A stretch of 64,000 nucleotides of DNA from Prochlorococcus sp. AG-412-I05 (lineage in GTDB: Bacteria > Cyanobacteriota > Cyanobacteriia > PCC-6307 > Cyanobiaceae): positions 2,211-66,210 of the forward strand of contig QCLC01000005.1 in assembly GCA_003214855.1 (NCBI GenBank), given 5' to 3'. Below, piece after piece: positions 19,373 to 54,210 of this stretch (position 1 is the stretch's first letter; each line of letters opens with the position of its first letter). The notes beneath the pieces were generated by a model, which was not told where the DNA came from, searched no databases, and saw only the letters and a list, made by a program, of their open reading frames with translations. Made by a program: the position numbers and the translations under genes.

Positions 19373-19374
19373 TT

Positions 19375-21569: not shown

Positions 21570-21662
21570 TGTTGGCCCAAAACAAAGGCATAGAAAAGTT
21601 AATTAAGTCAATTCCTGGTACTGACTTATTCCTTTAATTATATTTTTTTGAAGTCCGGATAA

Positions 21663-30941: not shown

Positions 30942-30942
30942 T

Positions 30943-31596: not shown

Positions 31597-31607
31597 GCGA
31601 GCACACA

Positions 31608-32774: not shown

Positions 32775-32781
32775 TAGATCG

Positions 32782-33477
32782 ATGAAACAACTACCCAACA
32801 ATCCAATGATCGCGGTGGTTGTGGCTGCTTATAACCAGGAAAAATTCATCGGCCGCTGCCTGCGTTCTCTCTTGCACCAGACCCTTCCCCAAAACACATA
32901 CGAGATCATTGTTGTTAATGATGGCAGCACTGACCTTACGCCCTACGCCCTGACACAATTTTGCGACGCCAATGACTCAATCGTGAACGTCATTAGCCAT
33001 GACACCAACAGAGGCTTGCCTGCGGCCTTGAACACGGGGATTCAAAATGCCCGTGGCCCTTACATCGTACGCGTGGATGCTGACGATTTCGTAAACGTAA
33101 ACTTCCTCAACTTCCTTTACTACTACCTTGAAACCAATGTCCATGTAGACGCAGTCGCCTGTGACTATCTATTGCTTAATGATGATGAAATATTATTGGA
33201 ACGTTGCTCCTGCCACGAGAAGCCAATCGCTTGTGGGATCATGTTCCGTAAGGAGCATTTGTTTGAAATCGGTCTTTACGACGAAGAATTTCGCTGCCAA
33301 GAGGAACGCGAACTGCGCATTCGTTTTGAAAAGAAATACAAGATTCATCGACTCGAACTACCTCTCTACCGCTACCGCAAGCACTCAAACAATATCACTC
33401 GTGATGCTCGGATGATGGAGCAGCATCACCTCAAGCTGATGGAGAAACATAAACATGACTCAAACCCAACACACTGA
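32782..33477 (+). CDS. GT2 family glycosyltransferase
   Basis: VVVAAYNQE, IIVVNDGSTD, NRGLPAALN, VRVDADD. Confidence 0.9.
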   Translation: MKQLPNNPMIAVVVAAYNQEKFIGRCLRSLLHQTLPQNTYEIIVVNDGSTDLTPYALTQFCDANDSIVNVISHDTNRGLPAALNTGIQNARGPYIVRVDADDFVNVNFLNFLYYYLETNVHVDAVACDYLLLNDDEILLERCSCHEKPIACGIMFRKEHLFEIGLYDEEFRCQEERELRIRFEKKYKIHRLELPLYRYRKHSNNITRDARMMEQHHLKLMEKHKHDSNPTH

Positions 33478-34195
33478 GCAGCCGATAGCTACTCAAGGGA
33501 AATTGGTCGTCGCCATTGTGCAGGCACGCATGGGCGCCAGCAGGCTCCCCAATAAAATGATGCTTTGGATGAACGGTCTGCCGATAGCAGGCTGGGTATT
33601 GCACCGGCTAAGGCAAGCGAAACGAATCAATCGGATTGTGTTTGCCTTGCCCAACACGGCACCTGACGATGTGCTGGCTGAATATCTGCAATCAGAAGGG
33701 GCGACGGTCTTCCGTGGTGCTGAGCAAGACGTGCTTGGGAGATTCTTCTATGCGGCTAAAGCCTTTGCCGCAGACAAGGTCGTAAGAGTCTGCGCGGACA
33801 ACCCATTGGTAACAGGATCTGAGATCGACCGTCTCATAGGCATTTTCGAGAGTCAAGGTTATGACTATGCCTACAATCATATCCCTCTTGATAACTTCTA
33901 CCCAGATGGACTGGGCGCAGAAGTCACTCATTTCACTGTGTTGCAGACATTGCATCGCGAGGCAGAGCTGCCCGAACATCGTGAGCATGTTTTCAATTAT
34001 CTCTGGGCGCATAAAGAGCGATTCCAGATCGGCACCTGCGACCCTGCAGATGCTGCCTTAGCCCATCCAGAACTGAAACTAGATATTGACACATTGAACG
34101 ACTACCAACGACTACTACAAATGCCTGTCAAACCAGAAAGTACGGCACGTGAAATCGTCGCGGCAGCACTGGCAGCAAAGAGGAGAGCCCAATGA
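33455..34195 (+). CDS. SpsF-like cytidylyltransferase
   Basis: IVQARMGASRLPNK, FRGAEQDVLGRF, VRVCADNPL, PDGLGAE, HREHV, LDIDT. Confidence 0.88.
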   Translation: MTQTQHTEQPIATQGKLVVAIVQARMGASRLPNKMMLWMNGLPIAGWVLHRLRQAKRINRIVFALPNTAPDDVLAEYLQSEGATVFRGAEQDVLGRFFYAAKAFAADKVVRVCADNPLVTGSEIDRLIGIFESQGYDYAYNHIPLDNFYPDGLGAEVTHFTVLQTLHREAELPEHREHVFNYLWAHKERFQIGTCDPADAALAHPELKLDIDTLNDYQRLLQMPVKPESTAREIVAAALAAKRRAQ

Positions 34196-35256
34196 ATTTG
34201 CGAAATCTGATCGAACATCATCGACCTGGAGAGAACCATTTAATCTCTCGCCCCTATCTGATCGCAGAGGCCGGTGTGAACCACGAGGGAAGCCTAGATC
34301 TTGCGAGACGCCTGATTGATGAGGCCAAGGAGGGTGGTGCTGACGCGATAAAATTTCAAACGTACAAGGCATCTACCATTGCGTCAAAAGATTCACCGTC
34401 CTATTGGGATCTCACTAAGGAACCTACAGATAGTCAGTATAAACTTTTTCAGAAATACGACAAATTCTGGAAATCTGAATTTGAGGCTCTGGCGGAACAT
34501 TGCCAAAATGTAAATATTGAGTTCCTGAGTACTCCTTTTGACATCGAATCAGCTCGATTCCTAAATGATCTGATGCCCGTATTCAAAATCTCTTCATCCG
34601 ATTTAAATAATAAACCGTTTATTAATTTCCTATGTCAATTCGGCAAGCCCATCATCCTCTCTACCGGTGCTTCCTATCTGTGGGAAGTGGAACAGAGCCT
34701 GAATTGGATCGAAACTCACGGCAATCCGGTTGCCTTGCTGCATTGCATCCTTAATTATCCAACAGACGATGCCAACGCAAATCTGGCAATGATAAAGGGC
34801 CTGGCGCACAAGTTCCCGGATCGGTTGATTGGCTATTCGGACCATACCCTGCCAAAAGACATGAAAACACTTGAAGTGGCGACACTAATGGGAGCACGGA
34901 TCATTGAAAAGCACTTCAGCCATGACAAAACCTTGACTGGAAACGATCACTATCACGCAATGGACAAGGATGATCTCAAGCGATTCCATGCCAGAATGGA
35001 TACATCTCTAGCACTGCTGGGCAGTGATACTCGCACGCCGCTGTCAAGCGAGAAGATATCCCGCACGAATGCTCGGCGGAGCTTAGTAGCCGCACGATCC
35101 ATCTCTGCAGGTTCCAATATCGTTGCAGAAGACATCACCTGGAAGCGACCTGGCACGGGAATAGACCCACGTGAATACGAACATCTATTAACTAAAACAG
35201 CTCTCCAAAATATCAAAGAAGATACGGTTCTTACTTGGGGTCTTTTTGATGATTGA
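34192..35256 (+). CDS. neuB: Second, intact nonulosonate synthase (NeuB/SpsE family)
   Basis: LIAEAGVNHEG, ADAIKFQTY, FLSTPFD, KISSSD, HCILNYPT, GYSDHT, IEKHF; C-terminal SAF domain KRPGTGI. Confidence 0.92.
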   Translation: MNLRNLIEHHRPGENHLISRPYLIAEAGVNHEGSLDLARRLIDEAKEGGADAIKFQTYKASTIASKDSPSYWDLTKEPTDSQYKLFQKYDKFWKSEFEALAEHCQNVNIEFLSTPFDIESARFLNDLMPVFKISSSDLNNKPFINFLCQFGKPIILSTGASYLWEVEQSLNWIETHGNPVALLHCILNYPTDDANANLAMIKGLAHKFPDRLIGYSDHTLPKDMKTLEVATLMGARIIEKHFSHDKTLTGNDHYHAMDKDDLKRFHARMDTSLALLGSDTRTPLSSEKISRTNARRSLVAARSISAGSNIVAEDITWKRPGTGIDPREYEHLLTKTALQNIKEDTVLTWGLFDD

Positions 35257-36547
35257 CGTCGCAGATGAGCTTGATCAATACCTGCATCGGCTTTTTCCTC
35301 TATGTCGCAGTCTGAGCGGGGAGCCAAATCGCGAGACGCTACGCATTATTCAAGAAATTGTACCACTAACAATTCATGAAGTTGAAAGTGGCACCTCAGT
35401 TTATGACTGGGTTATCCCTGACGAGTGGACAGTAAGAGATGCGTGGATCGCAGATACATCAGGTCATCGAATTGTCGATTTTAAGGAAAACAATCTTCAC
35501 TTGGTCAGCTATAGCACACCCATAAATTCAAAACTCCATTGGGCACAGTTAAAGGGCCATGTCCATAAACACCCACAGTTACCTAATGCTATACCTTACC
35601 GAACAAGCTACTATCGTCCTGACTGGGGCTTTTGTGTAACTGACGCGCAATACCAGCTATTAGCCAATTGCACTGAACCACTGACTGTTGTGATTGAAAC
35701 GGAACTGAAGCCAGGCTCAATGAGTTACGGTGAATATCTTCTTCCGGGAAATTCAAAGCAGGAAATACTGATTTCTTGTTACATTTGCCATCCATCAATG
35801 GCAAATGACAATTTAAGCGGTGTTCTGCTAACAGCATTCTTAGCAAGATATCTTTCCAAAAGAAAGAAAAGGCAATGGAGTTATCGCATAATATTTGTAC
35901 CAGAAACTATCGGAGCAATTGCTTATTGCGCGAGAAATGAGACAGCAATAAATGCTATTGATTTCGGTCTTGTCGTCACAACCGTAGGAGGGCCAGGAAA
36001 ACTTGGCTACAAACAGAGTTACAATTCCATGCATCCTATTAATGCAATTATTGAGACTATACTTGCTAAAAAGGAGAAAGACTTTATTACATACCCCTTT
36101 GATATCCACGGTAGTGACGAACGACAATACTCTAGTCAAGCATTTCGGATCAATACAGCCACCATTTGCCGTGATAGATATTACGAATATTCCTACTACC
36201 ATTCTTCCCTGGATGACCTGAGTTTTGTAAATGGCTCTCAAGTGGCTCTAACATACGATATTTACGTTGAATTAATAGACACTCTAGAAGAGCTTAAATA
36301 TTACAAAAGCCAAAACCAATCTTGCGAGGTGATGCTATCCCGTCACAAACTTTATCCAAGCATAGGAGGCGCTCGGAATCCTGAGCATGAAACTTTAACT
36401 GAGAATGACATTATACTATGGCTACTATTTCTTAGCGATGGGAAAATGCCTATCCAATTAATTGCCAAAAAGCTTAATATTAAAATGGCATACTTACAAC
36501 ATATAGTTGATAAGTTGATTGCTCGTGGGCTTCTATCAGAAGTTTAA
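35249..36547 (+). CDS. DUF4910-type aminopeptidase-like (M28 fold) protein with C-terminal HTH
   Basis: LFPLCRSLSG, DWVIPDEW, AIPYRTSYY, CHPSMANDNLSG, PETIGAI, GSDERQY, YHSSLDD. Confidence 0.85.
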   Translation: MIDVADELDQYLHRLFPLCRSLSGEPNRETLRIIQEIVPLTIHEVESGTSVYDWVIPDEWTVRDAWIADTSGHRIVDFKENNLHLVSYSTPINSKLHWAQLKGHVHKHPQLPNAIPYRTSYYRPDWGFCVTDAQYQLLANCTEPLTVVIETELKPGSMSYGEYLLPGNSKQEILISCYICHPSMANDNLSGVLLTAFLARYLSKRKKRQWSYRIIFVPETIGAIAYCARNETAINAIDFGLVVTTVGGPGKLGYKQSYNSMHPINAIIETILAKKEKDFITYPFDIHGSDERQYSSQAFRINTATICRDRYYEYSYYHSSLDDLSFVNGSQVALTYDIYVELIDTLEELKYYKSQNQSCEVMLSRHKLYPSIGGARNPEHETLTENDIILWLLFLSDGKMPIQLIAKKLNIKMAYLQHIVDKLIARGLLSEV

Positions 36548-37822: not shown

Positions 37823-39769
37823 ATGAAAATTGCTAGTATGCGATTATTAGAGAAAAGACAAGCCTATCCATCCAATAATTTCATGAAGACTCTTCTGATC
37901 ACCATTCCTATAAGACCCACTCCATCAGAGTTCCCGCCGATTGGCATGCTTTCAATAATGCAAGCAATGAGAAAAGCTGGTATTGATAATTTCGAATTTT
38001 ATAATATTGATGGGAATAGGCCTTCGTATAAAGATGCCTTAAAATATATTATCCGAGCAAATCCAGACATTATTTTTATTAGCGCTGTGGTTTCTACATC
38101 ATATTCCTATATAAAGAATATTACTCGGGACATACGTTCCTCATTGCCAAATGTATTAATTGTCGTAGGAGGGTCTATGGCTGCAAGCGCAGAAATATTA
38201 CTAAAGAGAACAAATGTCGATATTTGCGTAACAGGCGAAGGTGAAATCACCAATTGTAATATCATAAAGCAATTTAGTAAAACAAGGGATATTAAAGACT
38301 TGGTCAATATTCGAGGCATTGTGATGCTCATAGATAACAGGCTGCTTAACACCGGTTATGAAGAGCAAATATCCAAAGAACATGTTTATGATATTGATTG
38401 GGAAGACCTAGAAAAAAGCTCAGATATTAATCAATTTATGGTGCCCGCCTTTAATAGAGAGGGAGAGGCATGTGCTTGGTTCAAGAATGATCAGAGGACT
38501 TATGAACCTCACAGAAAAAATAAAACGGTAGCCTCTCTGCCTTGCTCTAAAGGCTGCATCGCTAGGTGTACCTTTTGCCATCGTTTCACATCAGGCATTA
38601 GATATATTCCCAATGAAATTATAGAGCAACGCATAGTACAACTTATCAAAAAATATAATGTTGGCTTTATAAGCATAGTGGATGAAAACTTTGGTACTGA
38701 CAAAAGATGGTTAAACAATTTCTGCTCGATGATTAAAAAGTATGATTTATTATGGAGAGTAGCTGGTATGAGAGTAAACACCTCATCACCAGAAAAGATG
38801 CAAATGATGAAAGACTCGGGATGTACTACAGCAATTTATGGCATGGAAACAGGTAGTCCAACTATATTAAAAGTAATGGAGAAAAGAGTCCATATTGAAG
38901 ATAATTACAATGCGATCAAATGGACAGTCGAGTCAGGGCTAGACACAACAATACAGCTAATTGTAGGCATGCCCGGAGAAACACCTGAAACTATTGCAGA
39001 AACCTGTCGCTTTGTTAAATATGGCATGTCTCTTAGCCCTGAACAATTCCCCAATAATACAAGTATCAACTACGCTCAAGCATTACCTGGAACACCACTT
39101 TATGAATATGCAAGAAATAATAAACTAATTGGCCAGGGTCTTCAAGGGGAAGAGGATTACCTGATTTCAATTTCAGATAAAGATGCTGCGGATGAATTAA
39201 CAACACTTAATTTCACTAAGTCTCCCAAGTTACTAGTCGAAACATGGAAGTCATTAATCACAATAGAAGTGAATTACCATTATGTCAAAAAATATGGTTT
39301 GCATCATTATTATAAAAAACTATTGCAATCATCCGATAAATACAAAGAAACAGAGATTGGGGGGAAAACATCTGAACAAAAAGTTTTTCTTGACTCAAGC
39401 TTTACATTTAATATCGATGACAACGCGAGGACGCGCCTTAAGTTCAATCGAAAGGATGAAGTTCCAAGCATTATTGAACTTTTCAAGAAAAAGTATTTTG
39501 GTCTGTTAATTATATGTTACCCAAGGCTTGCCTATAGGCTAAGAATGCTGTTACCTGTTGCGCAACTTCTCATGCATATTTCAAAATCTCGCTATGTTTA
39601 TTCTGCCAAGATATCTTTAGAATATCTCAAGTACGCAGTATCTAAAATTGCAAGATTTAACCATAGAAACCATGGACCAAATATATCCCTACGTAAGTTA
39701 ACAAACCCCAATATAGGTCAGCTCTATGAAGACAACTTTGATCTACTAGAGTTAAGGAAAGGGCGCTAA
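37823..39769 (+). CDS. B12-binding radical SAM protein (class B methylase-like)
   Basis: Cobalamin-binding N-terminus (FPPIGM, ISAVVST, VVGG, GEGE); CxxxCxxC in KGCIARCTFC; DENF, GMETGS, VGMPGET, PGTPLYE. Start may be ATG 37883. Confidence 0.9.
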   Translation: MKIASMRLLEKRQAYPSNNFMKTLLITIPIRPTPSEFPPIGMLSIMQAMRKAGIDNFEFYNIDGNRPSYKDALKYIIRANPDIIFISAVVSTSYSYIKNITRDIRSSLPNVLIVVGGSMAASAEILLKRTNVDICVTGEGEITNCNIIKQFSKTRDIKDLVNIRGIVMLIDNRLLNTGYEEQISKEHVYDIDWEDLEKSSDINQFMVPAFNREGEACAWFKNDQRTYEPHRKNKTVASLPCSKGCIARCTFCHRFTSGIRYIPNEIIEQRIVQLIKKYNVGFISIVDENFGTDKRWLNNFCSMIKKYDLLWRVAGMRVNTSSPEKMQMMKDSGCTTAIYGMETGSPTILKVMEKRVHIEDNYNAIKWTVESGLDTTIQLIVGMPGETPETIAETCRFVKYGMSLSPEQFPNNTSINYAQALPGTPLYEYARNNKLIGQGLQGEEDYLISISDKDAADELTTLNFTKSPKLLVETWKSLITIEVNYHYVKKYGLHHYYKKLLQSSDKYKETEIGGKTSEQKVFLDSSFTFNIDDNARTRLKFNRKDEVPSIIELFKKKYFGLLIICYPRLAYRLRMLLPVAQLLMHISKSRYVYSAKISLEYLKYAVSKIARFNHRNHGPNISLRKLTNPNIGQLYEDNFDLLELRKGR

Positions 39770-41981: not shown

Positions 41982-42260
41982 TAGAATATATTTTATTGTT
42001 TCTTGCCTTCTGTAAAGAAAATAACAATGCAGAACTGAAGTGTACGAGACACGGCCTATTTTAATTTTTCTGAGGAGCTTGTGTAGGTTGGATGCAGTCC
42101 CTGAATAAGCAGTATTAATCCAAAGAAACAGATCGCTCTATGGTAATTTCGCTTCTTTTATGGCTCAATAGTACGACATCCCCTTTATGAAAGTCAGCCC
42201 GCTAGATGTTCTGTCAGAGCACATTGTTCAACTGACTAGCATGTATAAAGCCGCTAAGGG

Positions 42261-43020
42261 TTGAAGTGTGGCCCACCAATTCAGTCCTCTCGCTGCCATT
42301 TATTCCACCCCGATGCCCACGTGACACAACAGGGACAACTTCGACTTGTGATCCTGCTCATTTAGCAAGGCCGCAGCATGGCCGAAAACGCTTCTGAGAA
42401 CAGGATTCAATCTAGAATGTATCTATAGCTGACTGGCCCACTGCTATCGCTCAGGCGGACTCCCTTTTCTGGCAGATCGCCGCAGTGAGCTCCTCACTCA
42501 GCATCGGATACTTGATCCGCAGCAACTTTACAAAGCGATTGCCCTTCGTCATCAACGCCTGCACTTGCGTCATATTTCCCATCTGCTACTGGCTCCCCTT
42601 CTCCACCGTGGCCAGAACACTCAGTAGTCTGGGCCTTCAGGCTAAGCCCAAGGCTTATCTAAAGCGATTATCAATGGAAGCTCCCTGCCGATATGTTCCA
42701 AATCCACGTCAAGACGCTGGTCAGGATCCGAAAGCTGGGATACCGGATCATTGCAGACCATCTAAAGGGACGCTCCTACGGCCTCGGTTACGAGAAAAGT
42801 CCGCATCGCGGGGATGACGCCAAACGGCTCTCCTACGTCTAGTTCCTTGACGATGAGGCCTTGGCCCACTGAGTAGAAAGCCAAGTGCAGATGTTTGATG
42901 ACTATCGATAGCAGGAATTAGAAGCAGGTCGATGTCCATTCCCTCTAGAGGTCCTCGAAAACGCCACCCAGCCAAATATCACGTACATGGCCACTGCTAC
43001 CAGAAAACCCTCGACTGTTT
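42261..43020 (+). mobile_element. IS481-family transposase relic (pseudogenised)
   Basis: Across frames: HPDAHVTQQGQLRLV, YRSGG, LADRRS...LDPQQL...LRHQRLHLRHI, PFSTVARTLSSLGL, IHVKTLVRIRKLGYRI, GRSYGLGYEK, DDAKRLSYV. Matches the IS481 layout typical of picocyanobacteria; ends approximate. Confidence 0.8.
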
Positions 43021-43758
43021 GTTATCGGTGGATCAATAAACGTCTATAGTGATTAATAGTGTCTGAGGTAGAAGACAGTAAAGTAGGCTGTTGCAGCATG
43101 GCAGACTATTTAGATGTGAAGTTGATTACTTTGCTCATTCATGCCATGTTACTCAGAAGTCAATGTCTCGCTTGGGCTAAGCCCCTCCAAACCACTGGTT
43201 AGTGGACAAAGTTTTATTCTTACAGCAACCAGATCAGCGCTTTGAGCGATCACAGCATTCTTGACCTGGCAAAGTTTTTGCGAGCGTTTATTTTATGGCG
43301 ACTTCACTCACCCTCCCCGCTCAATTGTCCGAAGCGTAATTTCGATATAGCAATGCCCACGCTGCTTACGTGTGTGGTGCCGCTAAATAGCGCAGTTAAT
43401 CCCATGGAAACGAACAGCCCTATGCCTCGAAGAAGGCGAGACATCGGTTAACCTTGCATGATGGAGTCGATTTAATTATATTAAATTTTAGAGCCATAAG
43501 GACTAGAGAATGTTTTTCTGTAAATTACTGTCTCGTGAATACTCCAATATGCATATTACCAGTTCAGGCAACCAAGGTCCAGTACTAGCATTTGATTATG
43601 ACCTCCTCAAAAATCACACAGACCGTGTATGTGTACGTGCTGGCTATTGGCCTGCAAAAGAGCGCCTTACATTAAACAGTCCTCAAGAATCATGGCAACT
43701 TTGAAGCGATGCCCTCAAGGTTACTGCTCTCAAGAACGTTGATTGTAAGAGTTTAAAA

Positions 43759-44535
43759 ATGCTTAGAACAAAGTTGAAGGCCAAGCTGAAGGCGGGGGAA
43801 CTTTCTCTTGGCACTTGGATCACATTGGGGAATGCCGCGATCGCAGAGATCTTCTCCAGGGCTGGATACGACTGGGTTGTTGTCGATCTGGAACATTCCA
43901 CAATCTCCATTGATCAGGCCGGGGAGCTGATCCGAACCATCGAATTGGCCGGGGCATCGCCCTTGGTTCGGCTCACATCCAACGACAAGAATCTGATCAA
44001 GAGGGTGATGGATGCGGGAGCTCATGGCGTAGTGGTGCCTAACGTCAATACCTCTCAGGAAGCCAGCAAAGCGGTAGCCGCCACACGCTATGCCCCACTT
44101 GGTCACCGGGGGGTAGGGCTAGCTAGAGCCCAGCATTACGGCCCAGGGTTCAGTGAATATCTTGATTGGCAAAGAGATGGTCCCATTGTGATCGTTCAAA
44201 TCGAAGATCAGGCCGCACTGGATCACCTCGAAGCGATTTTCACCACCCAAGGTGTTGATGGCTTCATCATTGGACCCTACGATCTGTCCTGCTCTATGGG
44301 TTTCCCCGGAGAGTTTAAACGTCGCGATTTTCTCGCGGCGATGAAACACATCCTGTCCACTGGTCAGCGCTTGGGCTGCCCACCCGGCCTTCATATAGTG
44401 GAACCTAAACCGGTTCTCCTCAGCCAAGCCATTAACGATGGTTATCGCTTCATCGCCTACAGCGTGGACATCCGCATGCTGGATGTCGCTGCCAGGGCTG
44501 GTTTTTTGGTTAACGAGCAGAACCGGAAAGCATGA
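43759..44535 (+). CDS. HpcH/HpaI class II pyruvate aldolase
   Basis: DWVVVDLEHS, KRVMDAGAHG, GHRGVG, IVQIE, IIGPYDLS. Confidence 0.92.
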   Translation: MLRTKLKAKLKAGELSLGTWITLGNAAIAEIFSRAGYDWVVVDLEHSTISIDQAGELIRTIELAGASPLVRLTSNDKNLIKRVMDAGAHGVVVPNVNTSQEASKAVAATRYAPLGHRGVGLARAQHYGPGFSEYLDWQRDGPIVIVQIEDQAALDHLEAIFTTQGVDGFIIGPYDLSCSMGFPGEFKRRDFLAAMKHILSTGQRLGCPPGLHIVEPKPVLLSQAINDGYRFIAYSVDIRMLDVAARAGFLVNEQNRKA

Positions 44536-45305
44536 TCAAGGCGATCGGTATTGTTCCTGCGCGTATGGGGTCAAGCCGCTTCCCCGGTAAACCCATGGCG
44601 CCCCTGTTGGGCATGCCTATGGTCGGTCATTGTTACCACCGCACACGTCTAGCTCCTGGTCTTTCTGCAGCCTATGTGGCTACCTGCGATGAACCCATTG
44701 CCGACTATTTAGCCGAAATCGGCGGACGAGCATTAATGACCGCCTCCACCCACAACCGCGCCAGCACCCGCACGGCCGAGGCATTTGAGATTATCGAACG
44801 GGAGACCGCTGAGCAGATCGACGTGGTAGTGATGGTTCAAGGCGACGAACCGCTGATCACGCCCGAAATTATCGGTGAGACCCTGCGGCATTTCACTGAC
44901 CCAACAGTGGGCATTGTCAATGTGATGTCCAGGCTGCGCACACTTGAAGCATTTATGGATAGAAACAACGTCAAAGTGGTCGTCGATCGCAACAGCAATG
45001 CTTTGTACTTTTCCCGCGAGCCGATTCCCTCACCCTGGAAAGGCTGGGAACATCTACCGTGCTTCATGCAAACCGGCATCATCGCCTTCCGGCGCGAAGT
45101 GTTGCAGCAATTCAACGCCATGACAGAGACACCCCTTGAACAATTCGAATCGGTTGACATGAACCGAGTGATTGAAACCGGCGGTGTCGTACGCATGGTG
45201 CCAACCGATGCCTTTACGATTGGCGTAGACACCCCAGAAGAGTTGACCGAGGCGCAGCACCATCTCTTGAATGATCCAACCCTTTCGAGATACATGCGCA
45301 GATGA
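44532..45305 (+). CDS. kdsB: KdsB-family cytidylyltransferase (CMP-ulosonate synthetase)
   Basis: IVPARMGSSRFPGKP, VQGDEP, VKVV, ALYFSREPIP, LEQFESVDMNR, GVDTPEE. Confidence 0.88.
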   Translation: MIKAIGIVPARMGSSRFPGKPMAPLLGMPMVGHCYHRTRLAPGLSAAYVATCDEPIADYLAEIGGRALMTASTHNRASTRTAEAFEIIERETAEQIDVVVMVQGDEPLITPEIIGETLRHFTDPTVGIVNVMSRLRTLEAFMDRNNVKVVVDRNSNALYFSREPIPSPWKGWEHLPCFMQTGIIAFRREVLQQFNAMTETPLEQFESVDMNRVIETGGVVRMVPTDAFTIGVDTPEELTEAQHHLLNDPTLSRYMRR

Positions 45306-46291
45306 AAGAAAACGATATCCGCCCAAAAGCCTTGCTTCAGCGTTATATAAAAATGAGTGCTGAGGACGCCGAACGACACTTTGCAGATAATTTGCGAATA
45401 GACCTCCCCTGCGTGGCCTGCGGCGGGATAGAAAGTGTCCATGCGTTCGATAAACACGGGTTTGGATATTGTCGCTGCAACATCTGCGGCACGCTCTATC
45501 AGAATCCTCGCCCGAGTCAAGCTTTATTTGAGGCCTTTTACCGCAATTCTGAGTCTTCCAGTTACTGGGCTAAGGTTTTTTTTCCAGCAGTTGCAGAAGC
45601 ACGGCGGGAAAAGATCTTTCGACCACGCGTCGAGCGCCTTTCGGCAATGTGTGAAGAGAGTAAAATAAGAGTGGATCGCCTGATCGATGTTGGAGCTGGA
45701 TACGGCCTCATGCTGGAGGAATGGCGTGAGAAATTTCCAGGGGCAAAGTTAGTTGCTATTGAACCCTCAGCAGATTTGGCTGAAAAGTGCCGTCTCAAAG
45801 GTTTTGAAGTTGTCGAAAATATCGTTGAACAAGTTAAACGATACGATGACTTTTCAGATCTGGTGGTTTGTTTTGAAGTTCTTGAGCATGTGTATGAGCC
45901 GCTATCTTTCCTGCAGACCCTTCATCGGCTTACAAGGCCTGGAGGGATGGTGGTTGTAAGTACGTTGTGCATCGACGGATTCGATCTTCAAACCCTTTGG
46001 GAGAAGTCGAATCAGATTTCTCCACCACACCATATTAACTTCCTCTCAGTTGATGGCATTCATCGCCTCTTTTCACGTGCTGGCCTGCAAGATATAAAGG
46101 TAACTACCCCTGGTCTGCTGGATGTAGATATTGTACGCAATGCCTCCCTACAGAATCCGGACATTCTAAACAATCAAAGATTCCTCAAATATCTAATTGA
46201 GGATGACCACAGAGCTAAAATATTTCAGAGATTTCTATCGGTAAACCAACTCAGCTCCCACGCGTGGGTGAGCGCAATTTCACCCGACTAA
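45302..46291 (+). CDS. SAM methyltransferase with N-terminal Zn ribbon
   Basis: CVAC...CNIC; LIDVGAGYG; FEVLEH; PPHHINF. Confidence 0.88.
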   Translation: MKENDIRPKALLQRYIKMSAEDAERHFADNLRIDLPCVACGGIESVHAFDKHGFGYCRCNICGTLYQNPRPSQALFEAFYRNSESSSYWAKVFFPAVAEARREKIFRPRVERLSAMCEESKIRVDRLIDVGAGYGLMLEEWREKFPGAKLVAIEPSADLAEKCRLKGFEVVENIVEQVKRYDDFSDLVVCFEVLEHVYEPLSFLQTLHRLTRPGGMVVVSTLCIDGFDLQTLWEKSNQISPPHHINFLSVDGIHRLFSRAGLQDIKVTTPGLLDVDIVRNASLQNPDILNNQRFLKYLIEDDHRAKIFQRFLSVNQLSSHAWVSAISPD

Positions 46292-46309
46292 TTCCTAAAA
46301 AGTAAGCAG

Positions 46310-47060
46310 ATGGCGAACATCCCTAAAAGAGTTGCAAAGCGAATCATACCCAAATCAATCCAAGGGTATTTAAGGAAAGCCAGCCTAAATAGGGCATTGA
46401 AAAGGCACGATAAGTTATTTTCAAGCAGAAGTACGAATCAGATATTTGCAACAATCTATTCAAAAAGGATGTGGGGCGAAAGCGATCTTGATGCAATTTT
46501 TTCAGGCAATAGCTCTCACGAGCTAGCCCATGTCTCAACATATGTCAAAGCGGTGCAATCATTTTTAGGCCTGTTCGAGCCACCTCTGAATGTAGTTGAT
46601 CTGGGTTGTGGTGATTTCAACATCAGACCTAAAGTCAGATCACTGGCAAAAACCACGTTGCTTGCGATGGTACAGACAAACTACTCGAGAGAAATGGGGA
46701 GCGTTTCTCGGAGATTGGCCTTGATTTCAGAATTCCTGATAGAATTGAAGACCCTTGCCGCCAGGAGAGGTGGCAATGATTCGTCAAGTGTTTCAACATT
46801 CATCAAATAAAGAGATCCAAGAAATTATAGATATGATCCATCAATATAGATATTTAATTTTAAGGAAATATATGCCTGGTTCATTGTTTACACCAAAAAT
46901 CGATCACCCTACTGGAGCCTACTCTCGATTAGCTCGTGGGATAAAAAGCGTGATTGTGCATACAAAACCTCTCGTCAATTTAAGGTTTAGGAATAAAAGA
47001 ATAATTTGCGAAATGCCAGAGCAGACATGTTTTCCGAAGGCCATCCTTTACGAGTCTTAA
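46310..47060 (+). pseudogene. SAM methyltransferase, frameshifted
   Basis: FATIYSKRMWG...SGNSSH...VVDLGCGDFNI in one frame; PPGEVAMIRQVFQH in another. Confidence 0.75.
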
Positions 47061-47063
47061 TTA

Positions 47064-48119
47064 ATGAAACGATTGAAAATCGGTATTGCCGGATACGGAG
47101 TTGTGGGCAAAAGGCGCCGTGATTGCATTGACAAACATCCGAAGATGCATTTAGTAGCAGTTTGTGATCGATTGTATAATGAGAATGGCATCCATCCTGA
47201 TGATATACGCTATTACTCTAACTATCATGATCTGCTAAATGAAGACCTAGACGCTTTATTTGTATGCATGACTAATGATATCGCCCCGGAGGTCACTATT
47301 GCCGCCCTAGAGCGAGGCCTACATGTATTTTGCGAAAAGCCCCCAGGTCGCAGTTTAGAAGACATTAGCCGGGTGATTAACTGCGAGCGCCTGCACCCTG
47401 ATCAACGGCTCATGTACGGCTTCAATCACCGCTACCATGATTCTGTTCAGGACGCGCTGAAGATAGTTCACTCGGGCGCATTGGGAAAAATTATTAACTT
47501 ACGTGGCATTTACGGAAAGTCTAAGATCATCACATTCAACCAATCTGACTGGCGTACAAAACGCAAAATATCAGGAGGTGGAGTGTTACTCGATCAAGGA
47601 ATTCATATGGTTGATTTGATGCGATTGTTCGCTGGTGAGTTCATCCAAGTCCAAAGCATCGTGTCGAATTCTTATTGGGGGTTCGATGTAGAAGATAATG
47701 CCTATGCCCTAATGTGTACTGCAGAAGGCATAGTTGGAATGCTCAATTCATCGGCCACACAATGGCGACATCGTTTTCATCTTGATATCAATTTGGAAAA
47801 AGGTAGTGTTATTCTCGGTGGATTGCTCACAGGTAGCAAAAGCTACGGCGCAGAAACACTAACCGTAGCCATAGTTGATCATGATAATGACAATGGAGAT
47901 CCACGCGAGCAACTTACTCGTTACAATACAGACAAATCGTGGGAACGCGAAATCAATGATTTCGCTACAAGTATCTTAGAAGATAGCGAAATAATTTCTG
48001 GCACTTCACATGATGCCTTTCAAACGATGAAGCTGGTCACTCAAATCTATTACGCAGATCACAATTGGCGAACTCAATTCAACATTTCTGATCCAAATTT
48101 GATCCAATCCCAATACTAA
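47064..48119 (+). CDS. Gfo/Idh/MocA family oxidoreductase
   Basis: IAGYGVVG, HVFCEKP, GFNHRY, GGGVLLDQGIHMVD, VEDNA. Confidence 0.92.
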   Translation: MKRLKIGIAGYGVVGKRRRDCIDKHPKMHLVAVCDRLYNENGIHPDDIRYYSNYHDLLNEDLDALFVCMTNDIAPEVTIAALERGLHVFCEKPPGRSLEDISRVINCERLHPDQRLMYGFNHRYHDSVQDALKIVHSGALGKIINLRGIYGKSKIITFNQSDWRTKRKISGGGVLLDQGIHMVDLMRLFAGEFIQVQSIVSNSYWGFDVEDNAYALMCTAEGIVGMLNSSATQWRHRFHLDINLEKGSVILGGLLTGSKSYGAETLTVAIVDHDNDNGDPREQLTRYNTDKSWEREINDFATSILEDSEIISGTSHDAFQTMKLVTQIYYADHNWRTQFNISDPNLIQSQY

Positions 48120-48129
48120 TTAACCTAAT

Positions 48130-49370
48130 CAACTCTTGAGCGTGGCTTCCAACTGGTTTAAACAAATTTAGATTAGGTACATTCTTTCAGGAATTGGAGC
48201 TTGTGAAACAGGAAGTCTTGTCATCATTTTTCTCGAATCACGCAGATTTGACTTTGCTTTATTTTTCATTGGCAACAATAGTAGTACAAAACTATATGCC
48301 TATTGGTAGCAACTGTGAGGAAACCTGTTTGTTCGCTGTTTGCTGAACCGGTAACGGCACGATAATAGCTGTGATTAGGAAAGACTTCGGCTTCGCCGCC
48401 ATTTTATTTTGTACTAGGCTTGCGAAGCATCTACGTCTATCCGGTTGTGATAATATCTTAACTAGGGAATCATACAATCTGCTCAAAACCTTTGATCATG
48501 CAAGAAAGGCTAGCATAAAGACAGTAGACTAAATATGCTTGATTAGAGCAAAAAAAACAAATCGAACACGAATGCATTCACATACCCATGAGTCCAATAA
48601 GGCAAGGTCCAGGTAAGAGTGCGCTTAGCTTGTTGGATAATTTGACCCGTGTTTCTTTATTCATCAGGACAATAAAGTGATTATTGCCCACAACATTTTG
48701 GACAAAAGCTTTTTGGATTAGTGCTAATAGTGGAATTTTCAAGAAAATCAGTAAAAATTCGCTAACTTTACACAAATGTAATCGGTAAACGAACGAATTC
48801 TACTGACTTTTCAGAGAACCATTGTGCAAAGTTGTTGATTGCTAAATCTCGCATCACCTAAAGGCTTACAAGTGCACGGAGTAGTCAAAGTGTTTCTCAA
48901 AATATTCGATCAGTAAAGCAGGGATTAACAAGGTTGGGGAATTTAAACAGCTTGAGCTTGAAGACTTACGGGGTATCCGCAAGGAAATGTGCTTAAGATT
49001 TTTATTCTCAGCCAATCAGTCATTCCCACAATAAAATTTACAGATCGGGCAGTATCGTTAATATTTTGATGGCTTTGTTAAAAGTTTGGCGAGCAATCTC
49101 CCACCCAATCATGAAAAAGGTTCTCCCACTATGGGTTAATTCTTAACATAGCGGCTTAAAGTGCGCACAACAGCACTCTCGACAACTCTGTAAATCCAGG
49201 GTTCTCGAATGCAGAGATCACAAGGAGGTTGCTTAGCTATAAGCAAATACATGATTGATCGGAGATGGTGCTGATTCATTGAATGGCTACAAGCAATGAG
49301 ATTGCACGGATTCTTATTTGGCTAGCCTGTGATGAGAATAGCTGCATAACAAGCTAATATAAAGAAATCT
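48130..49370 (+). pseudogene. Heavily eroded gene remnants: an SDR oxidoreductase (~48590-49370), possibly preceded by a metal-hydrolase/cyclase-family gene
   Basis: SDR fragments KAGINKVGEFKQLELED (~48915), NSVNPGFSNAEITRRLL (~49185), EIARILIWLACDENS (~49300). The upstream part is only weakly recognisable. Confidence 0.55.
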
Positions 49371-50456
49371 ATGGAGACTTTACTCATGCTTGAGCGCATA
49401 ACTATTAAATCTAATAGTGGCCCATATGATGTGGAATTTGCTCCAAACTTATTAAATAATTTCGTGGCTAGCGAGGAGGGTGTGACGCACTATTTAGTAG
49501 ACAGCAATGTTGCACGTATGTACACAAATCAGCTTGCTAGTGTACTTTCAGACCCCTACACTCTGCTGATAGAAGCGACTGAAGATAATAAGTCAATAGA
49601 TAGCATCATACCAGTCATCGAGCAGTTAGTGAATAACAATTTCAAACGAGATCATTTGTTGCTTGCCATTGGCGGTGGCATTGTTCAAGACATCACTTGT
49701 TTTATTGCAAGTACTCTGCTTCGAGGAGTGGAATGGCGATTCGTACCGACGACGCTTCTAGCTCAAGCAGATTCCTGTATTGGCTCAAAGAGCTCGATCA
49801 ATCTCGGCAATGTTAAAAACATATTAGGGACTTTTTTACCACCTAAAAAAATATGGATCTGCCATGAGTTTCTGAACACCCTTGAACGCAAGGACATTCA
49901 ATCTGGCATTGGTGAGATCCTAAAAGTGCATGCAATCGCTGGCCCTGAGGCATTTGACTTGCTAAAGCAAGACTTTTCGAAGTTGATTTCAGATCGTACA
50001 ACCCTATTGCACTATATAAAGGAAGCTTTGCTGATTAAGCGAAAGTACATCGAAGTTGATGAGTATGACAAAAGTTCACGCAACATTTTTAACTATGGAC
50101 ACAGTTTTGGTCATGCCATAGAGTCAGCCACTAATTTTAGAGTTCCTCACGGAGTGGCAGTAACAATCGGCATGGACATGGCAAATCATATCGCTGTGAT
50201 GCGTGGACACCTACCTGCAGAACACCGTGATCGAATGCATGATGTACTAAGTCAAAATTACTTTGACTTCAAAAATATCCCCATCAACCCAGACTCAATG
50301 ATGAGAGCATTACTGAAGGACAAGAAAAATACAGCTACCGAGTTAATGCTTATCTTTCCAGTTGGAGAGAAAGCTAGTATGCAGCGAGTAAGTGTGGCCC
50401 CTGAAGAAGACTTTTATTCCCAATGTGTACAATTTCTTCAAGGTATTGGAGCATGA
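49371..50456 (+). CDS. AroB-related sugar-phosphate cyclase (3-dehydroquinate synthase superfamily)
   Basis: GGGIVQD, PTTLLAQADSCIGSKSSIN, KNILGTF, GEILKVH, NYGHSFGHAIE, PHGVAV, DKK. Differs from canonical AroB at GGGVIGD/DSSVGGKT. Confidence 0.88.
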   Translation: METLLMLERITIKSNSGPYDVEFAPNLLNNFVASEEGVTHYLVDSNVARMYTNQLASVLSDPYTLLIEATEDNKSIDSIIPVIEQLVNNNFKRDHLLLAIGGGIVQDITCFIASTLLRGVEWRFVPTTLLAQADSCIGSKSSINLGNVKNILGTFLPPKKIWICHEFLNTLERKDIQSGIGEILKVHAIAGPEAFDLLKQDFSKLISDRTTLLHYIKEALLIKRKYIEVDEYDKSSRNIFNYGHSFGHAIESATNFRVPHGVAVTIGMDMANHIAVMRGHLPAEHRDRMHDVLSQNYFDFKNIPINPDSMMRALLKDKKNTATELMLIFPVGEKASMQRVSVAPEEDFYSQCVQFLQGIGA

Positions 50457-51385
50457 ACACAATCGACCGCATCGCTGTATGTTCTCGTTCGTTTTCTAGA
50501 AACCCGTTGTTGCGCAAAGAGCTACTGGCGCGCTATCAGCATGTAAAATTTAATGATGATGGACTCAAATTAGAGGGTGATGATTTAATCGCTTTCCTGA
50601 AGGGTCATAACAAGGCTATTACGGCGCTCGAGAAGATTAACGATGATGTTTTATCTCAATTACCAGATCTAGCAGTGATCGGCAAGTATGGGGTTGGTCT
50701 CGATATGATCGACATAGAGGCGATGCGACACCACGGCAAACGATTAGGATGGACTGGCGGCGTCAACCGTCGATCGGTTTCAGAGATGGTTATCGCGTTA
50801 ATTATTACGATGCTTCGCCATTTCCCTACAGCACATAACGAGGTCCTCAATGGAACCTGGCGGCAGCATGTCGGTGGGCTGTTATCCGGGAGGACTGTCG
50901 GCATCATCGGCTGTGGACATATCGGGAAAGATCTGGCCACGCTCTTACAACCTTGGGGTTGCACCTTGCTAGCAAACGACATTCTGGATTTTCCGGAGTT
51001 TTATGCCGCCAACAAAGTAGAGGCCGTCTCTTTGACCACGCTGTTAAGGCAAGCCGATGTAGTGACGTTACACGTACCCTTGAACGAGACGACCCAAAAC
51101 ATGCTTTCGGCGAAGTACTTGCGACTGATGAAGCCCAGCGCCATACTTATCAATCTTGCACGCGGAGGCTTGGTTGACGAAATTGAGGTAAGGGAAATGC
51201 TCAAGTCCAATCGATTAGGTGCTGCTGCATTTGATGTTTTTCATACTGAACCCCCTGAGGATAAAGAATTATTGAAGCTGCCCAATTTCTTTGTTACCCC
51301 CCACATCGGCGGTAGTGCAGAGGAAGTGATTCTGGCCATGGGGCGTGCGGCAATTGATGGACTGGATTCCAATATTATTCCTTGA
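50453..51385 (+). CDS. D-2-hydroxyacid dehydrogenase (phosphoglycerate dehydrogenase-like, no ACT domain)
   Basis: YGVGLDMID, GIIGCGHIG, LHVP, INLARGGLVDE, TPHIGG. Confidence 0.9.
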   Translation: MNTIDRIAVCSRSFSRNPLLRKELLARYQHVKFNDDGLKLEGDDLIAFLKGHNKAITALEKINDDVLSQLPDLAVIGKYGVGLDMIDIEAMRHHGKRLGWTGGVNRRSVSEMVIALIITMLRHFPTAHNEVLNGTWRQHVGGLLSGRTVGIIGCGHIGKDLATLLQPWGCTLLANDILDFPEFYAANKVEAVSLTTLLRQADVVTLHVPLNETTQNMLSAKYLRLMKPSAILINLARGGLVDEIEVREMLKSNRLGAAAFDVFHTEPPEDKELLKLPNFFVTPHIGGSAEEVILAMGRAAIDGLDSNIIP

Positions 51386-52336
51386 ACATGAAGATTTTAG
51401 AGAATGATCACTTCTACCATATCAATCAGACCATGCAATCAAATATTAAACAGTTGGTCAAAGCTATAGCAAATGGCACAGTTAAATACCTTTCTAGGAG
51501 CAGAGTAGGCGGCTATGTTTGTGAATTAATTCTCAATTCTGCCATGAGCGCAACACAGACTATCAATCATGATCAAATAAAACTTACTTTCTCTACACCC
51601 AATTAACTTACCCGATTTCGTGTTGACACTTGTTCAACCAAAGAACCACAGAAACTCTCAATTGGATCGATACAATGACTGAAGGAGCGGTGTTCTGGGA
51701 TGTCGGCTCCAATATTGGTCTATACAGTTGTTATGCTGCAAAAGCTAGAGGCATACGTGTTTTCGCCTGTGAGCCTTCGGTATTTAACCTAGAGTTGTTG
51801 GCTAAGAATATCTATCTGAATGAACTCGTTGAGAAAGTCGTGATTGTTCCCTTGCCGTTGTCGGACTCAATTAAAACAAGTACATTAAATATGTCTACAA
51901 TGGAATGGGGGGTGCGTTGTCGACATTCGCAGAGGACTACGATGATGATGGTAAAATCCTTGAAATACCCTTCCAATTTAGTTCGGTTGGCCTATCGATG
52001 GATGAGGCGGTGACGCTGCTAAAAATACCCCTTCCGACTTACATCAAAATCGACGTGGATGCGATCGAACATCTGATTTTATCCGGAGGTCAAGCTCTAC
52101 TTCAATACGTCGAAGAAGTGGCTATCGAAGTGAATGAGTCCTTCTCTCATCAAGTCTTAAATGTCCAAAAATACCTTTCGGCTGCCGGGCTGTCATTCAA
52201 GGAGAAAAAGCACTCAGCGATGGTCAAAACGTTGAGAGATGGAGTCGAACATATAACCAAGTCTGGCATAGAGTTAAATATTAAGAATGGCCTACTGCGT
52301 TTAACTGTCATGCCAATAAGACCCAAGTCTTTTTAA
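51382..52336 (+). pseudogene. FkbM-family methyltransferase pseudogene
   Basis: FSTPN*LTRFRVDTCSTKEP / ETLNWID...WDVGSNIGLYS...EPSVFN / GGALSTF...YIKIDVDAIE. One stop and at least two frameshifts, one at the G6 run 51907-51912. Confidence 0.8.
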
Positions 52337-52338
52337 TT

Positions 52339-54210
52339 TTGCATAAGAAACATCTGGGCAAGATACTTATCTGGGATTCGGAGACGCCTCCACCCAAATG
52401 CAATGAGACGATTTTATTGTGGAGTGCTTTCTCCGATGAGACAGCTCCTCATGCCGTATCAATTCCTACTCTCATTGAAACGAATGCCAATAAGCTTAAA
52501 TCCCAGTACCTAGAATACATATATGAGCTAGGCGAATTATGCCCAAAGGGTCGCCGTCTAATTGACCACCTGGAGCTTCGACCAGGGTTTAGTTATTGGT
52601 GGATGTCACAGATCGTGGAGAGTGCCTACGATAAATCCCTCCAATTAGTGAATATATTAGGTATACTTGCCTTCACAAATTGGGCCGAAAGATTCTTCAT
52701 TGATCAAATCTTGCTGGTAACAGCAAATCGATCTTTAGCCGAGTCAATGAGACGGTGGTGTGCAAATAAGGATGTAGCATTTGAATGGCGACACGTAAAG
52801 AAAACACAGAATCGGCAGTCCTTTAGGCACATTTTCAAATTTACCCTAGCTCCCATTAGAGCCATCTCATGGTTACTGCACTACTGGGCTACACGTTACC
52901 AGTTGAAAGGGTTCGGCATCAAACAATGGCAAAAGACATGCGCAGGCATCACTTTTGTTCCCTATTTATTTAATATGCTTCCAGATGCCGCGAACGAAGG
53001 TCGCTACGCAACTTACTACTTTGCCCACCTACCAGAGACTCTAATAAGCAATGGCTATAAAACAAATTGGCTACATTTGTATTGCGGCTCTGAATTAATC
53101 CCAAATAGCAAAAAAGCTGCCCAATTTATTCACCTATTTAACAAAGATAGTCAAGGCAGTCAATGTCATACCACGCTTGATTCTTTCCTTAGCATTCGAA
53201 TTATTCTTCAAACCATTGGTGACTGGATCAAGATTGCATTACCTGCATATAGGGTAACACTTGATTTAAGTCACAACAGCAATTCCAAGACATATTTATG
53301 GCCCCTTTTGTCAAAAGATTGGAGGGAGTCCTTCTTTGGTCCTAACGCGATCAGCAACTTACTGTTCTTAAATTTATTCGAAGAATCGATGAGCACTTTG
53401 CCTCATCAACAAATCGGTTTTTATCTTCAGGAGAATCAGGCATGGGAGATGGCTTTCATCTATGCCTGGAAGGCTGCTGGCCATGGCAGACTAATCGGTG
53501 TTCCTCACTCAACTGTACGGTTTTGGGATCTTAGATACTTCTACGATCCACTCACTTTCCAGCGCGACCGGAAGAATGTCTTACCAATGCCAGATGCGGT
53601 GGCTCTTAATGGCCCAGCGGCTACCAGCGCTTATCTATTAGGTGGTTATCCCGCAGAGAAAATAGTGAAGGTAGAAGCCCTTCGCTTTCTATATCTTGCG
53701 AATGCACATTTACGTAAACCTTTATCTATATCACCTAATAGTCCAATGCACTTATTGGTTCTGGGAGACTATTTCGAGCGCAACACAAAAACACAACTTC
53801 GTCTTTTGGGGGAAGCTGTAAAGTCATTTCCTCATGATCTTAAAATTACAGTCAAACCACACCCAGCCCGCTCTGTATTCGCAGCGGACTACCCAAATCT
53901 AAAAATGCAAGTAGTTGCTGAGCCTGTTGCTCAACTTCTTAATCAATGTCATATAGCCTACACCAGTTCGATCACCGCGGCTGCAGTCGATGCTTACTTA
54001 ACCGGTGTGCCAGTGGTGACTCTGTTAGATTCAACTCAGCTAAACCTGAGTCCATTGCGCGGCCTGGATGATGTGTTTTTTGTAAGTAGTGCGGTTGAAT
54101 TATGTAATGCACTCAAAACAATCATGATAGCACCGCCCAGGGCTATCCCCAAGAACGAGTTTTTCAACCTCGACAAAGACTTACCTCGATGGCGAGATTT
54201 GCTGACCTAA
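52339..54210 (+). CDS. Surface carbohydrate biosynthesis protein (TIGR04326-like, putative transferase)
   Basis: FSYWWMS, YLQENQAWE, GVPHSTVRFWDLRYF, KVEALRF, VKPHP, TAAAVDAY...NLSPLRG. Confidence 0.7.
   Translation: MHKKHLGKILIWDSETPPPKCNETILLWSAFSDETAPHAVSIPTLIETNANKLKSQYLEYIYELGELCPKGRRLIDHLELRPGFSYWWMSQIVESAYDKSLQLVNILGILAFTNWAERFFIDQILLVTANRSLAESMRRWCANKDVAFEWRHVKKTQNRQSFRHIFKFTLAPIRAISWLLHYWATRYQLKGFGIKQWQKTCAGITFVPYLFNMLPDAANEGRYATYYFAHLPETLISNGYKTNWLHLYCGSELIPNSKKAAQFIHLFNKDSQGSQCHTTLDSFLSIRIILQTIGDWIKIALPAYRVTLDLSHNSNSKTYLWPLLSKDWRESFFGPNAISNLLFLNLFEESMSTLPHQQIGFYLQENQAWEMAFIYAWKAAGHGRLIGVPHSTVRFWDLRYFYDPLTFQRDRKNVLPMPDAVALNGPAATSAYLLGGYPAEKIVKVEALRFLYLANAHLRKPLSISPNSPMHLLVLGDYFERNTKTQLRLLGEAVKSFPHDLKITVKPHPARSVFAADYPNLKMQVVAEPVAQLLNQCHIAYTSSITAAAVDAYLTGVPVVTLLDSTQLNLSPLRGLDDVFFVSSAVELCNALKTIMIAPPRAIPKNEFFNLDKDLPRWRDLLT

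Follow-up and report, generated by a model that had tools for sequence, protein, structure and literature searches.

Within a 64,000-nucleotide stretch of Prochlorococcus sp. AG-412-I05 (contig QCLC01000005.1, or C5:2211-66210; hereafter the window), taken from an assembly of 2.13 Mb that is 74% complete, we identified a glycan gene cassette built around a relative of AroB, the 3-dehydroquinate synthase (DHQS). The cassette is real and conserved, and is uncharacterised in the literature searched. Judging from its genes, we lean towards a pathway in which the AroB-like enzyme would eliminate phosphate without closing a ring, a short-chain dehydrogenase/reductase (SDR) would reduce the product, and the resulting 7-deoxy seven-carbon acid, with a backbone from an aldol or 3-deoxy-D-arabinoheptulosonate 7-phosphate (DAHP) route, would be activated with cytidine 5'-monophosphate (CMP).

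We predict that the steps follow in this order. The backbone would be made from pyruvate and a tetrose phosphate by the HpcH aldolase of the cassette where this is present, with host DAHP used otherwise. The AroB-like enzyme would then eliminate the terminal phosphate from the DAHP-type heptulosonate 7-phosphate and leave the carbon ring open. The DHQS mechanism passes via a phosphate-eliminated enol, and here this enol would be protonated rather than cyclised to give a 6-keto-7-methyl acid. The SDR would reduce the methyl ketone to a 7-deoxy seven-carbon 2-ulosonic acid, a KdsB-like enzyme would activate it with CMP, and a TIGR04326 protein is a candidate transferase of the CMP-sugar to the surface glycan. 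Stereocentres or oxidation state would be set by a SIS-family isomerase, a Gfo/Idh/MocA oxidoreductase (Gfo) and a D-2-hydroxyacid dehydrogenase (2HADH). The genes are the following (counts refer to the long bacterial loci described below).

43759-44535, plus strand: HpcH/HpaI class II pyruvate aldolase, accessory (PF03328, 1e-33)
44532-45305, plus strand, overlapping the aldolase frame: KdsB-like CMP-ulosonate synthetase whose motifs for sugar binding are altered (PRK13368, 261 bits, cut-off 255)
45302-46291, plus strand: class I S-adenosylmethionine (SAM) methyltransferase, accessory (PF13489, 1.5e-23; 6/24 long loci)
46310-47060, plus strand: split pair of open reading frames (ORFs; 166 and 101 amino acids), probably a broken methyltransferase-like gene (glycine-rich motif in the sequence)
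47064-48119, plus strand: Gfo/Idh/MocA NAD-dependent oxidoreductase, core (profile matches; 23/24 long loci)
48118-48680, plus strand, ends approximate: decayed GmhA-like SIS isomerase gene (tblastn, three frames, E 1e-14)
48685-49390, plus strand, ends approximate: decayed classical SDR gene (tblastn, E 3e-22, three frames, internal stops)
49371-50456, plus strand: AroB-related putative sugar-phosphate phospho-lyase, TIGR04425 (469 bits, cut-off 400)
50423-51385, plus strand: 2HADH, core (PF02826, 6e-53; 24/24 long loci)
51445-52336, plus strand: frameshifted FkbM-type methyltransferase gene (three frames against loci L026, L031 and L057; TIGR01444 match to one piece)
52339-54210, plus strand: TIGR04326 surface-carbohydrate protein (501 bits, cut-off 250; 12/24 long loci)

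The ORFs named in an earlier note on this DNA, written from the letters alone, lie on the plus strand where it placed them. That note recognised the decayed SDR and missed the GmhA-like SIS gene beside it; two core genes are dead in this copy, and among the methyltransferases only one is intact. The split pair at 46310-47060 has no family match and no relative in the related cassettes fetched, and its glycine-rich motif is presumably that of a methyltransferase. Residues H46, R71, E149 and D175 of the aldolase do not vary in 10 copies of the cassette and can be aligned with HpaI/YfaU; we take them to be the catalytic His/Arg/Glu/Asp set of HpcH/HpaI aldolases. Among the window ORFs scanned there is no shikimate gene and no kdsA, as the note had said (kdsD was not specifically searched for). 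The same ORFs include no thiamine diphosphate (ThDP) enzyme and no RfbH, the genes by which an acyl-branched (caryophyllose-type) pathway would be recognised in the window.

We clustered ORFs from 82 bacterial loci (80 from metagenomes and 2 from genomes) and 42 viral loci. Loci too short to show neighbours were excluded, leaving 68 of the 82 bacterial loci for the SDR count and 24 for full gene counts. An SDR gene lies immediately upstream of the AroB-like gene in all 68 bacterial loci that have 500 or more bases of upstream DNA and in 41 of the 42 viral loci. The 24 long loci encode 2HADH (24), SDR (24), Gfo (23), SIS (14), TIGR04326 (12) and HpcH (8) proteins. KdsB-like genes occur in 15; two further kinds of CMP-synthetase are present in 6 and 3 loci, with some overlap, and a 6-phosphogluconolactonase-family gene is present in 6. 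None of the families that recur across these loci is KdsA, KdsD or KdsC. Of the gene set in the earlier note, the aldolase, at 8/24, is optional and is not supported as a defining part.

The recurring arrangement is Gfo-SIS-SDR-AroB-like-2HADH plus a CMP-transferase (type A, that of the window). Type B, found in phages, comprises a CMP-synthetase-cupin, a weak GT29 match, SDR, AroB-like, class III aminotransferase and SIS genes; cassettes like it lie on viral contigs L108, L110, L111, L114-L120, L140 and others. The phage locus L162:2254-9567 is 66-76% identical to type B in its GT29, CMP-synthetase, SDR and aminotransferase genes, but has 2HADH and Gfo and lacks an AroB-like gene. Type C carries genes for a cytidine 5'-diphosphate (CDP)-3,6-dideoxyhexose, an HpcH-like aldolase, SDR, AroB-like and a thiamine enzyme. 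The present genome holds a second AroB-like cassette, of type C, on contig C27 (L012:4174-13095, minus strand), with RfbF, RfbG, RfbH-like, SDR, AroB-like, thiamine enzyme, HpcH-like aldolase, one gene of unknown function and a large GT2. From this content, a picocyanobacterium would be expected to make a dideoxy sugar with a long branch.

By its profile scores the AroB-like gene of the window is an extra copy that belongs to TIGR04425 and is not AroB. The protein fails the aroB model TIGR01357 (268 bits against a cut-off of 305), which the product of a canonical aroB on contig C2 exceeds at 370 bits. The earlier note called it a divergent DHQS-family cyclase. The relationship to DHQS is right; the protein is not unclassified, as it passes TIGR04425, which NCBIfam lists as a hypothetical equivalog named "AroB-related putative sugar phosphate phospholyase". 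A wider glycan-cassette clade takes in members below the TIGR04425 cut-off (267-397 bits). Many clade proteins carry the database label "3-dehydroquinate synthase", an annotation that is probably wrong at scale, and only clusters named "DHQS family" were obtained from the ESM Atlas. The predicted model (predicted local distance difference test 88.7) has the DHQS fold (template-modelling score about 0.8), and the closest solved relatives are AroB for this protein and KdsB/KpsU for the KdsB-like protein.

We compared residues in 127 glycan-cassette rows, six AroB references and three annotated sedoheptulose 7-phosphate (SH7P) cyclases, using the numbering of protein P0001. The marks of the DHQS superfamily, a Glu/His/His metal site (E177, H239, H255) and a GGG NAD motif at 96-98, are present in 127/127 rows. 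R113, D129, K135, N145, E177, K218, R232, N236, H239, H243 and H255 are likewise as in AroB throughout. Five clade marks (Q101, C131, S137, L215 and D228) are common to all 127 rows, where the six AroB have G/T, S/A, G/A, A/C/I/V and E; the Gln and the Asp marks each occur in 147 of the 150 best distant representatives. The annotated SH7P cyclases have M at 218, K/A/A at 232, D at 236 and P at 243, whereas the window enzyme retains K218, R232, N236 and H243. Identity as an SH7P cyclase (EEVS/DDGS/EVS) was rejected on this Lys/Arg/Asn/His pattern. K218 and R232 presumably bind the C1 carboxylate, as in the Aspergillus DHQS structure. Because these AroB-type C1-side residues are kept, the enzyme probably acts on a ulosonate 7-phosphate of seven carbons with a C1 carboxylate.

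A careful tree of 41 hand-picked rows (30 glycan-cassette enzymes, 6 AroB, 3 SH7P cyclases, EboD and one other) separates the glycan-cassette enzymes from AroB, the SH7P cyclases and EboD at 100/99, with a small reference set on long branches and without DOIS or DDGS. Type A enzymes form a clade at 100/98 and join six type C phage enzymes at 93/96, a link with support of 96 in a quick tree of 105 rows; the quick tree omits 33 of 138 sequences (every second type A row), and locus L116 is labelled type C in it and type B in the residue comparison. DOIS gave the weakest structural identity, 20-21%, with no DOIS sequence in the tree. One natural fusion of an AroB-like domain with a 2HADH was identified (P0443). 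A locus in a same-family genome (G380, L144:7124-10252) encodes SIS, AroB-like, CMP-synthetase and SDR, with its AroB-like enzyme on a long branch.

A search of genome contigs with the single AroB-like protein found only 2 loci. The plasmid and phage records searched hold no close relative of the enzyme, and thus we found no named strain with both a solved glycan and an intact cassette.

By score and motifs, the KdsB-like protein would not be a canonical CMP-Kdo synthetase (Kdo, 3-deoxy-D-manno-octulosonic acid). It scores 137 bits against TIGR00466, below the cut-off of 155, and passes broader subfamily models. RASTR, QTGII and VDMNR replace the SGT(D/E)R, HIGIY (or HVGIY) and LEQLR of solved KdsB/KpsU proteins, at positions that we take to be Kdo contacts, while the N-terminal nucleotide motif and QGDEP are retained. 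The protein is about 28% identical to the product of the genome's own kdsB, which passes TIGR00466 and lies close to kdsA on contig C3. These altered motifs fit the earlier note's proposal, which our results support, of a pathway dedicated to an unusual keto-acid sugar activated with CMP.

The cassette would work like the CMP-Kdo pathway (KdsD, KdsA, KdsC, KdsB/KpsU) without being a member of it. They would have in common an isomerase, a three-carbon addition, phosphate removal and CMP activation by a KdsB-type enzyme. The cassette differs in having a GmhA-like SIS and a pyruvate aldolase for KdsD and KdsA, the AroB-like enzyme and SDR where KdsC acts, an extra Gfo and 2HADH, and changed sugar-binding motifs. 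Compared with AroB and the sugar phosphate cyclases (EEVS, DDGS, DOIS, EboD/DEIS), the fold and the metal, NAD and phosphate positions are alike and the carboxylate-side residues are as in AroB, but the cassette enzyme falls in a separate clade with its own marks, is nearly always beside an SDR in glycan loci, and is predicted not to cyclise.

A first clue against a carbocyclic product comes from another bacterium. The caryophyllose locus of Mycobacterium marinum is annotated with a DHQS-family protein (MMAR_2329), an SDR (2330), an aldolase (2331), a ThDP enzyme (2332), RfbF (2334) and RfbH (2335), according to the supplementary listing of PMC12395582. This set, MMAR_2329-2335, is the gene content of type C, as in the C27 cassette. 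Caryophyllose bears a hydroxylated six-carbon chain (PMC7821131, in the section consulted). Mutants in 2331-2333 do not add caryophyllose, and the side chain is proposed to derive from a polyhydroxylated keto-acid donor; a DHQS-like gene is unmentioned in the excerpts of that paper on the pathway (PMC9306805). In caryophyllose and acyl-branched pathways (YerE/F, ErwE/F/I), a thiamine enzyme is proposed to decarboxylate a keto acid onto CDP-4-keto-3,6-dideoxyglucose, whereas the window cassette would use CMP activation. We take the caryophyllose chain to be deoxy at its second carbon and to end in a methyl group, which would match a decarboxylated 3,7-dideoxy-heptulosonate.

A second clue is a plain phosphatase in related cassettes. 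A plasmid search with the window Gfo gave five matches, and the best three were examined as sister cassettes, in Leisingera aquaemixtae, Paenibacillus cellulosilyticus and Sinorhizobium fredii SMH12. All three have Gfo, SIS, 2HADH, a CMP-transferase and a PF00459 (inositol-monophosphatase-family) phosphatase, without the SDR/AroB-like pair in the fetched stretch. The S. fredii cassette (L168:3224-14497), from a cultured strain, lies beside two capsule-synthesis genes; no K-antigen structure for this strain was found in the portions of the literature searched. The fourth plasmid match, in Rhizobium jaguaris, belongs to a different pathway, and two SIS matches lie in unrelated contexts.

Several points weigh against phosphate elimination without ring closure. 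The AroB active site is retained almost entire, and the DHQS enol intermediate is able to cyclise unaided. MMAR_2329 is a putative member of the clade by annotation and gene content, no mycobacterium being named in the searches for relatives. The exchange of phosphatase for the pair is not clean. Among seven viral Gfo matches the pair occurs in two, neither the pair nor a recognised phosphatase in two (phage loci L159 and L161, which lack both modules), and an SDR alone in one (L162, with SDR, Gfo and 2HADH and no AroB-like gene); of the remainder, one is cut and one weak. The SDRs of the two cassette types share only about 35% identity, which is no more than with other SDRs of the genome, and the link between types A and C, at 96 in the quick tree, carries no star in the careful tree (93/96). 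Any roles given to SIS, Gfo and 2HADH are tentative. Finally, the near-invariant SDR is lost in the present copy, which is awkward for any model that requires it.

The same phosphate removal could act on a backbone made by oxidation. SIS would convert SH7P to an aldoheptose, Gfo would oxidise C1, a lactonase would open the ring and 2HADH would oxidise C2, giving a 3-hydroxy (Ko-like) heptulosonate. We consider this improbable. Gfo and 2HADH are core genes and the aldolase is not, the lactonase-family gene recurs in 6/24 loci, the SIS is most like GmhA, and P0443 joins 2HADH and the AroB-like domain in one protein; the SIS decay could moreover be accounted for by another GmhA-like gene on C5. 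However, most phage cassettes have SIS, SDR and AroB-like genes without Gfo or 2HADH, and the intact aldolase of the window copy would be left unexplained.

It also seems unlikely that the enzyme is a true cyclase, forming dehydroquinate or an epimer that the oxidoreductases turn into a quinate-like cyclitol acid, which would be cytidylylated and built into the glycan. The fold and the match to AroB at the metal, NAD, phosphate and carboxylate positions favour such a product, as does an NCBI family name that says "cyclizing", though that model is hypothetical. The DHQS-fold enzymes characterised so far are all described as cyclases (PMC12904256, in the sections consulted). The carbocycle that the earlier note had put forward is disfavoured because a locus for an open-chain sugar is annotated with this gene set and the sister cassettes carry an ordinary phosphatase. 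A glycosyl donor requires a ring oxygen, which a carbocycle lacks, and a carbocycle cannot form an oxocarbenium donor. The skeletons of caryose and bradyrhizose presumably resemble branched 3,6-dideoxyhexoses and not CMP-ulosonates.

Whether the window copy still functions is a separate matter. Gfo and the AroB-like gene are separated by 1270 bases, where six intact relatives have 1315-1395; each frame of this gap has 25-29 stops, and the gap contains the remains of the SIS and SDR genes. Intact SIS orthologues match gmhA models below cut-off. Against the sister locus L020, the AroB-like gene aligns without gaps, with identity of 0.90/0.92/0.64 at the three codon positions, nonsynonymous divergence (dN) 0.095 and synonymous divergence (dS) 0.82; the SDR remnant gives 0.66/0.74/0.64 with 16 gaps and the SIS remnant 0.60/0.71/0.55 with 6 gaps. 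Between L020 and L021, SIS and SDR are as conserved as the AroB-like gene, and thus their decay is specific to the present lineage and old. By these comparisons, SIS and SDR decayed long ago here, and six neighbouring genes are still constrained. No independent contig spanned 48344-49345 at 85% likeness. Assembly error in the decayed stretch is a formal possibility, against which the substitutions at first and second positions argue. The promoter signal in the decayed stretch is not above chance (3 against 4.1).

We think it quite unlikely that the cassette is a dead relic, whose pathway ended with the loss of SIS and SDR and whose other genes are merely unbroken so far. Besides these two core genes, those at 46310-47060 and 51445-52336 are split and the NeuB at 22785 is short. 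The AroB-like branch in the careful tree is about twice its sister's (0.16 against 0.077), and the enzyme shows 7 departures at conserved sites, the median being 4. As many departures are seen in 15/120 homologues, however, and none of the other five intact genes exceeds its median; the AroB-like gene and 2HADH both have a dN/dS of about 0.1. The contrast of codon positions and gaps between SDR and AroB-like gene against the same sister indicates that the SDR decay is old, its neighbours having stayed intact meanwhile. Copies that might substitute are, for SIS, the GmhA-like gene at C5:82173 (35%) and, for the SDR, genes on C1, C12 and C27 (about 31-35%). The pathway here would use such copies (the C5 GmhA-like gene and the C27 SDR) or stop at the ketone.

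That the window encodes a second ordinary dehydroquinate synthase beside a Kdo-activating KdsB is very improbable, since the best solved relatives are indeed AroB and KdsB/KpsU but both proteins fall under the aroB and TIGR00466 cut-offs, the synthase falls in a separate clade, the KdsB motifs are altered, and canonical copies lie elsewhere; the AroB-like gene is not the genome's sole aroB, the case that the earlier note had named as fatal to its proposal.

Profile searches of the window ORFs identify the setting as a surface-polysaccharide island, with legionaminic-type genes, a second NeuB set, a CDP-glucose dehydratase and three orphan families (TIGR04441, TIGR04331 and TIGR04326) whose names derive from Leptospira O-antigen genes. 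The legionaminic-acid-type genes (17649-25587) include LegB and LegC over cut-off, the NeuB at 22785 (221 amino acids, profile 79-286 only), a short NeuC and a split formyltransferase; this block is possibly also decaying. An iron-type alcohol dehydrogenase, methyltransferase, DegT aminotransferase, GT2, CMP-synthetase and NeuB (29838-35256) presumably resemble KdnB/KdnA amino-ulosonate logic joined to a nonulosonate synthase. The island also encodes a B12-dependent radical SAM protein (37823-39769) and a DUF4910/DUF2172 protein (35246-36547). The 1.8 kb upstream of the aldolase (41982-43758) lacks long ORFs; it shows faint similarity (E about 1e-6) to a gene that precedes the cassette in loci L054 and L030, and its first 500 bases are about 95% like contigs from three runs.

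The genome probably acquired the cassette, because it was not found in the four same-genus genomes searched and only 1/401 genomes of the class, the present one, passes the TIGR04425 cut-off. Two photosystem reaction-centre genes mark the genome as cyanobacterial, Synechococcus being the sole control to match that family. The sequencing runs that contain parts of the window are marine metagenomes, with no RNA run listed among them.

The TIGR04425 family is already known from its hidden Markov model, and the window copy is damaged. The accession appears in no paper of the literature searched, in which subscription papers were mostly not covered. Searches combining DHQS with O-antigen, kdsB, aldolase or Leptospira rfb gave no description of the module in the text available, "heptulosonic acid" was not found among the matches listed, and the parts of PMC4703794 and PMC13354803 consulted contain nothing on the cassette genes.

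We regard as evenly balanced the broader proposal that a large bacterial and phage clade with the DHQS fold dropped ring closure and forms, together with an SDR, a portable module for terminal deoxygenation, supplying both the methyl end of caryophyllose-type chains and a new family of seven-carbon, sialic-acid-like CMP-sugars. The present genome would hold both types, its CMP cassette having run on after the loss of its own SDR and SIS. If this is true, a member that halts once phosphate is eliminated would represent a new activity and offer a natural means to gauge the enzyme's share in ring closure. It would also provide a route to terminal deoxy sugars without a nucleotide-sugar dehydratase and fill a gap in caryophyllose biosynthesis. 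An unseen CMP-heptulosonate would then be predicted in marine bacteria and in phages with GT29 sialyltransferase-like genes.

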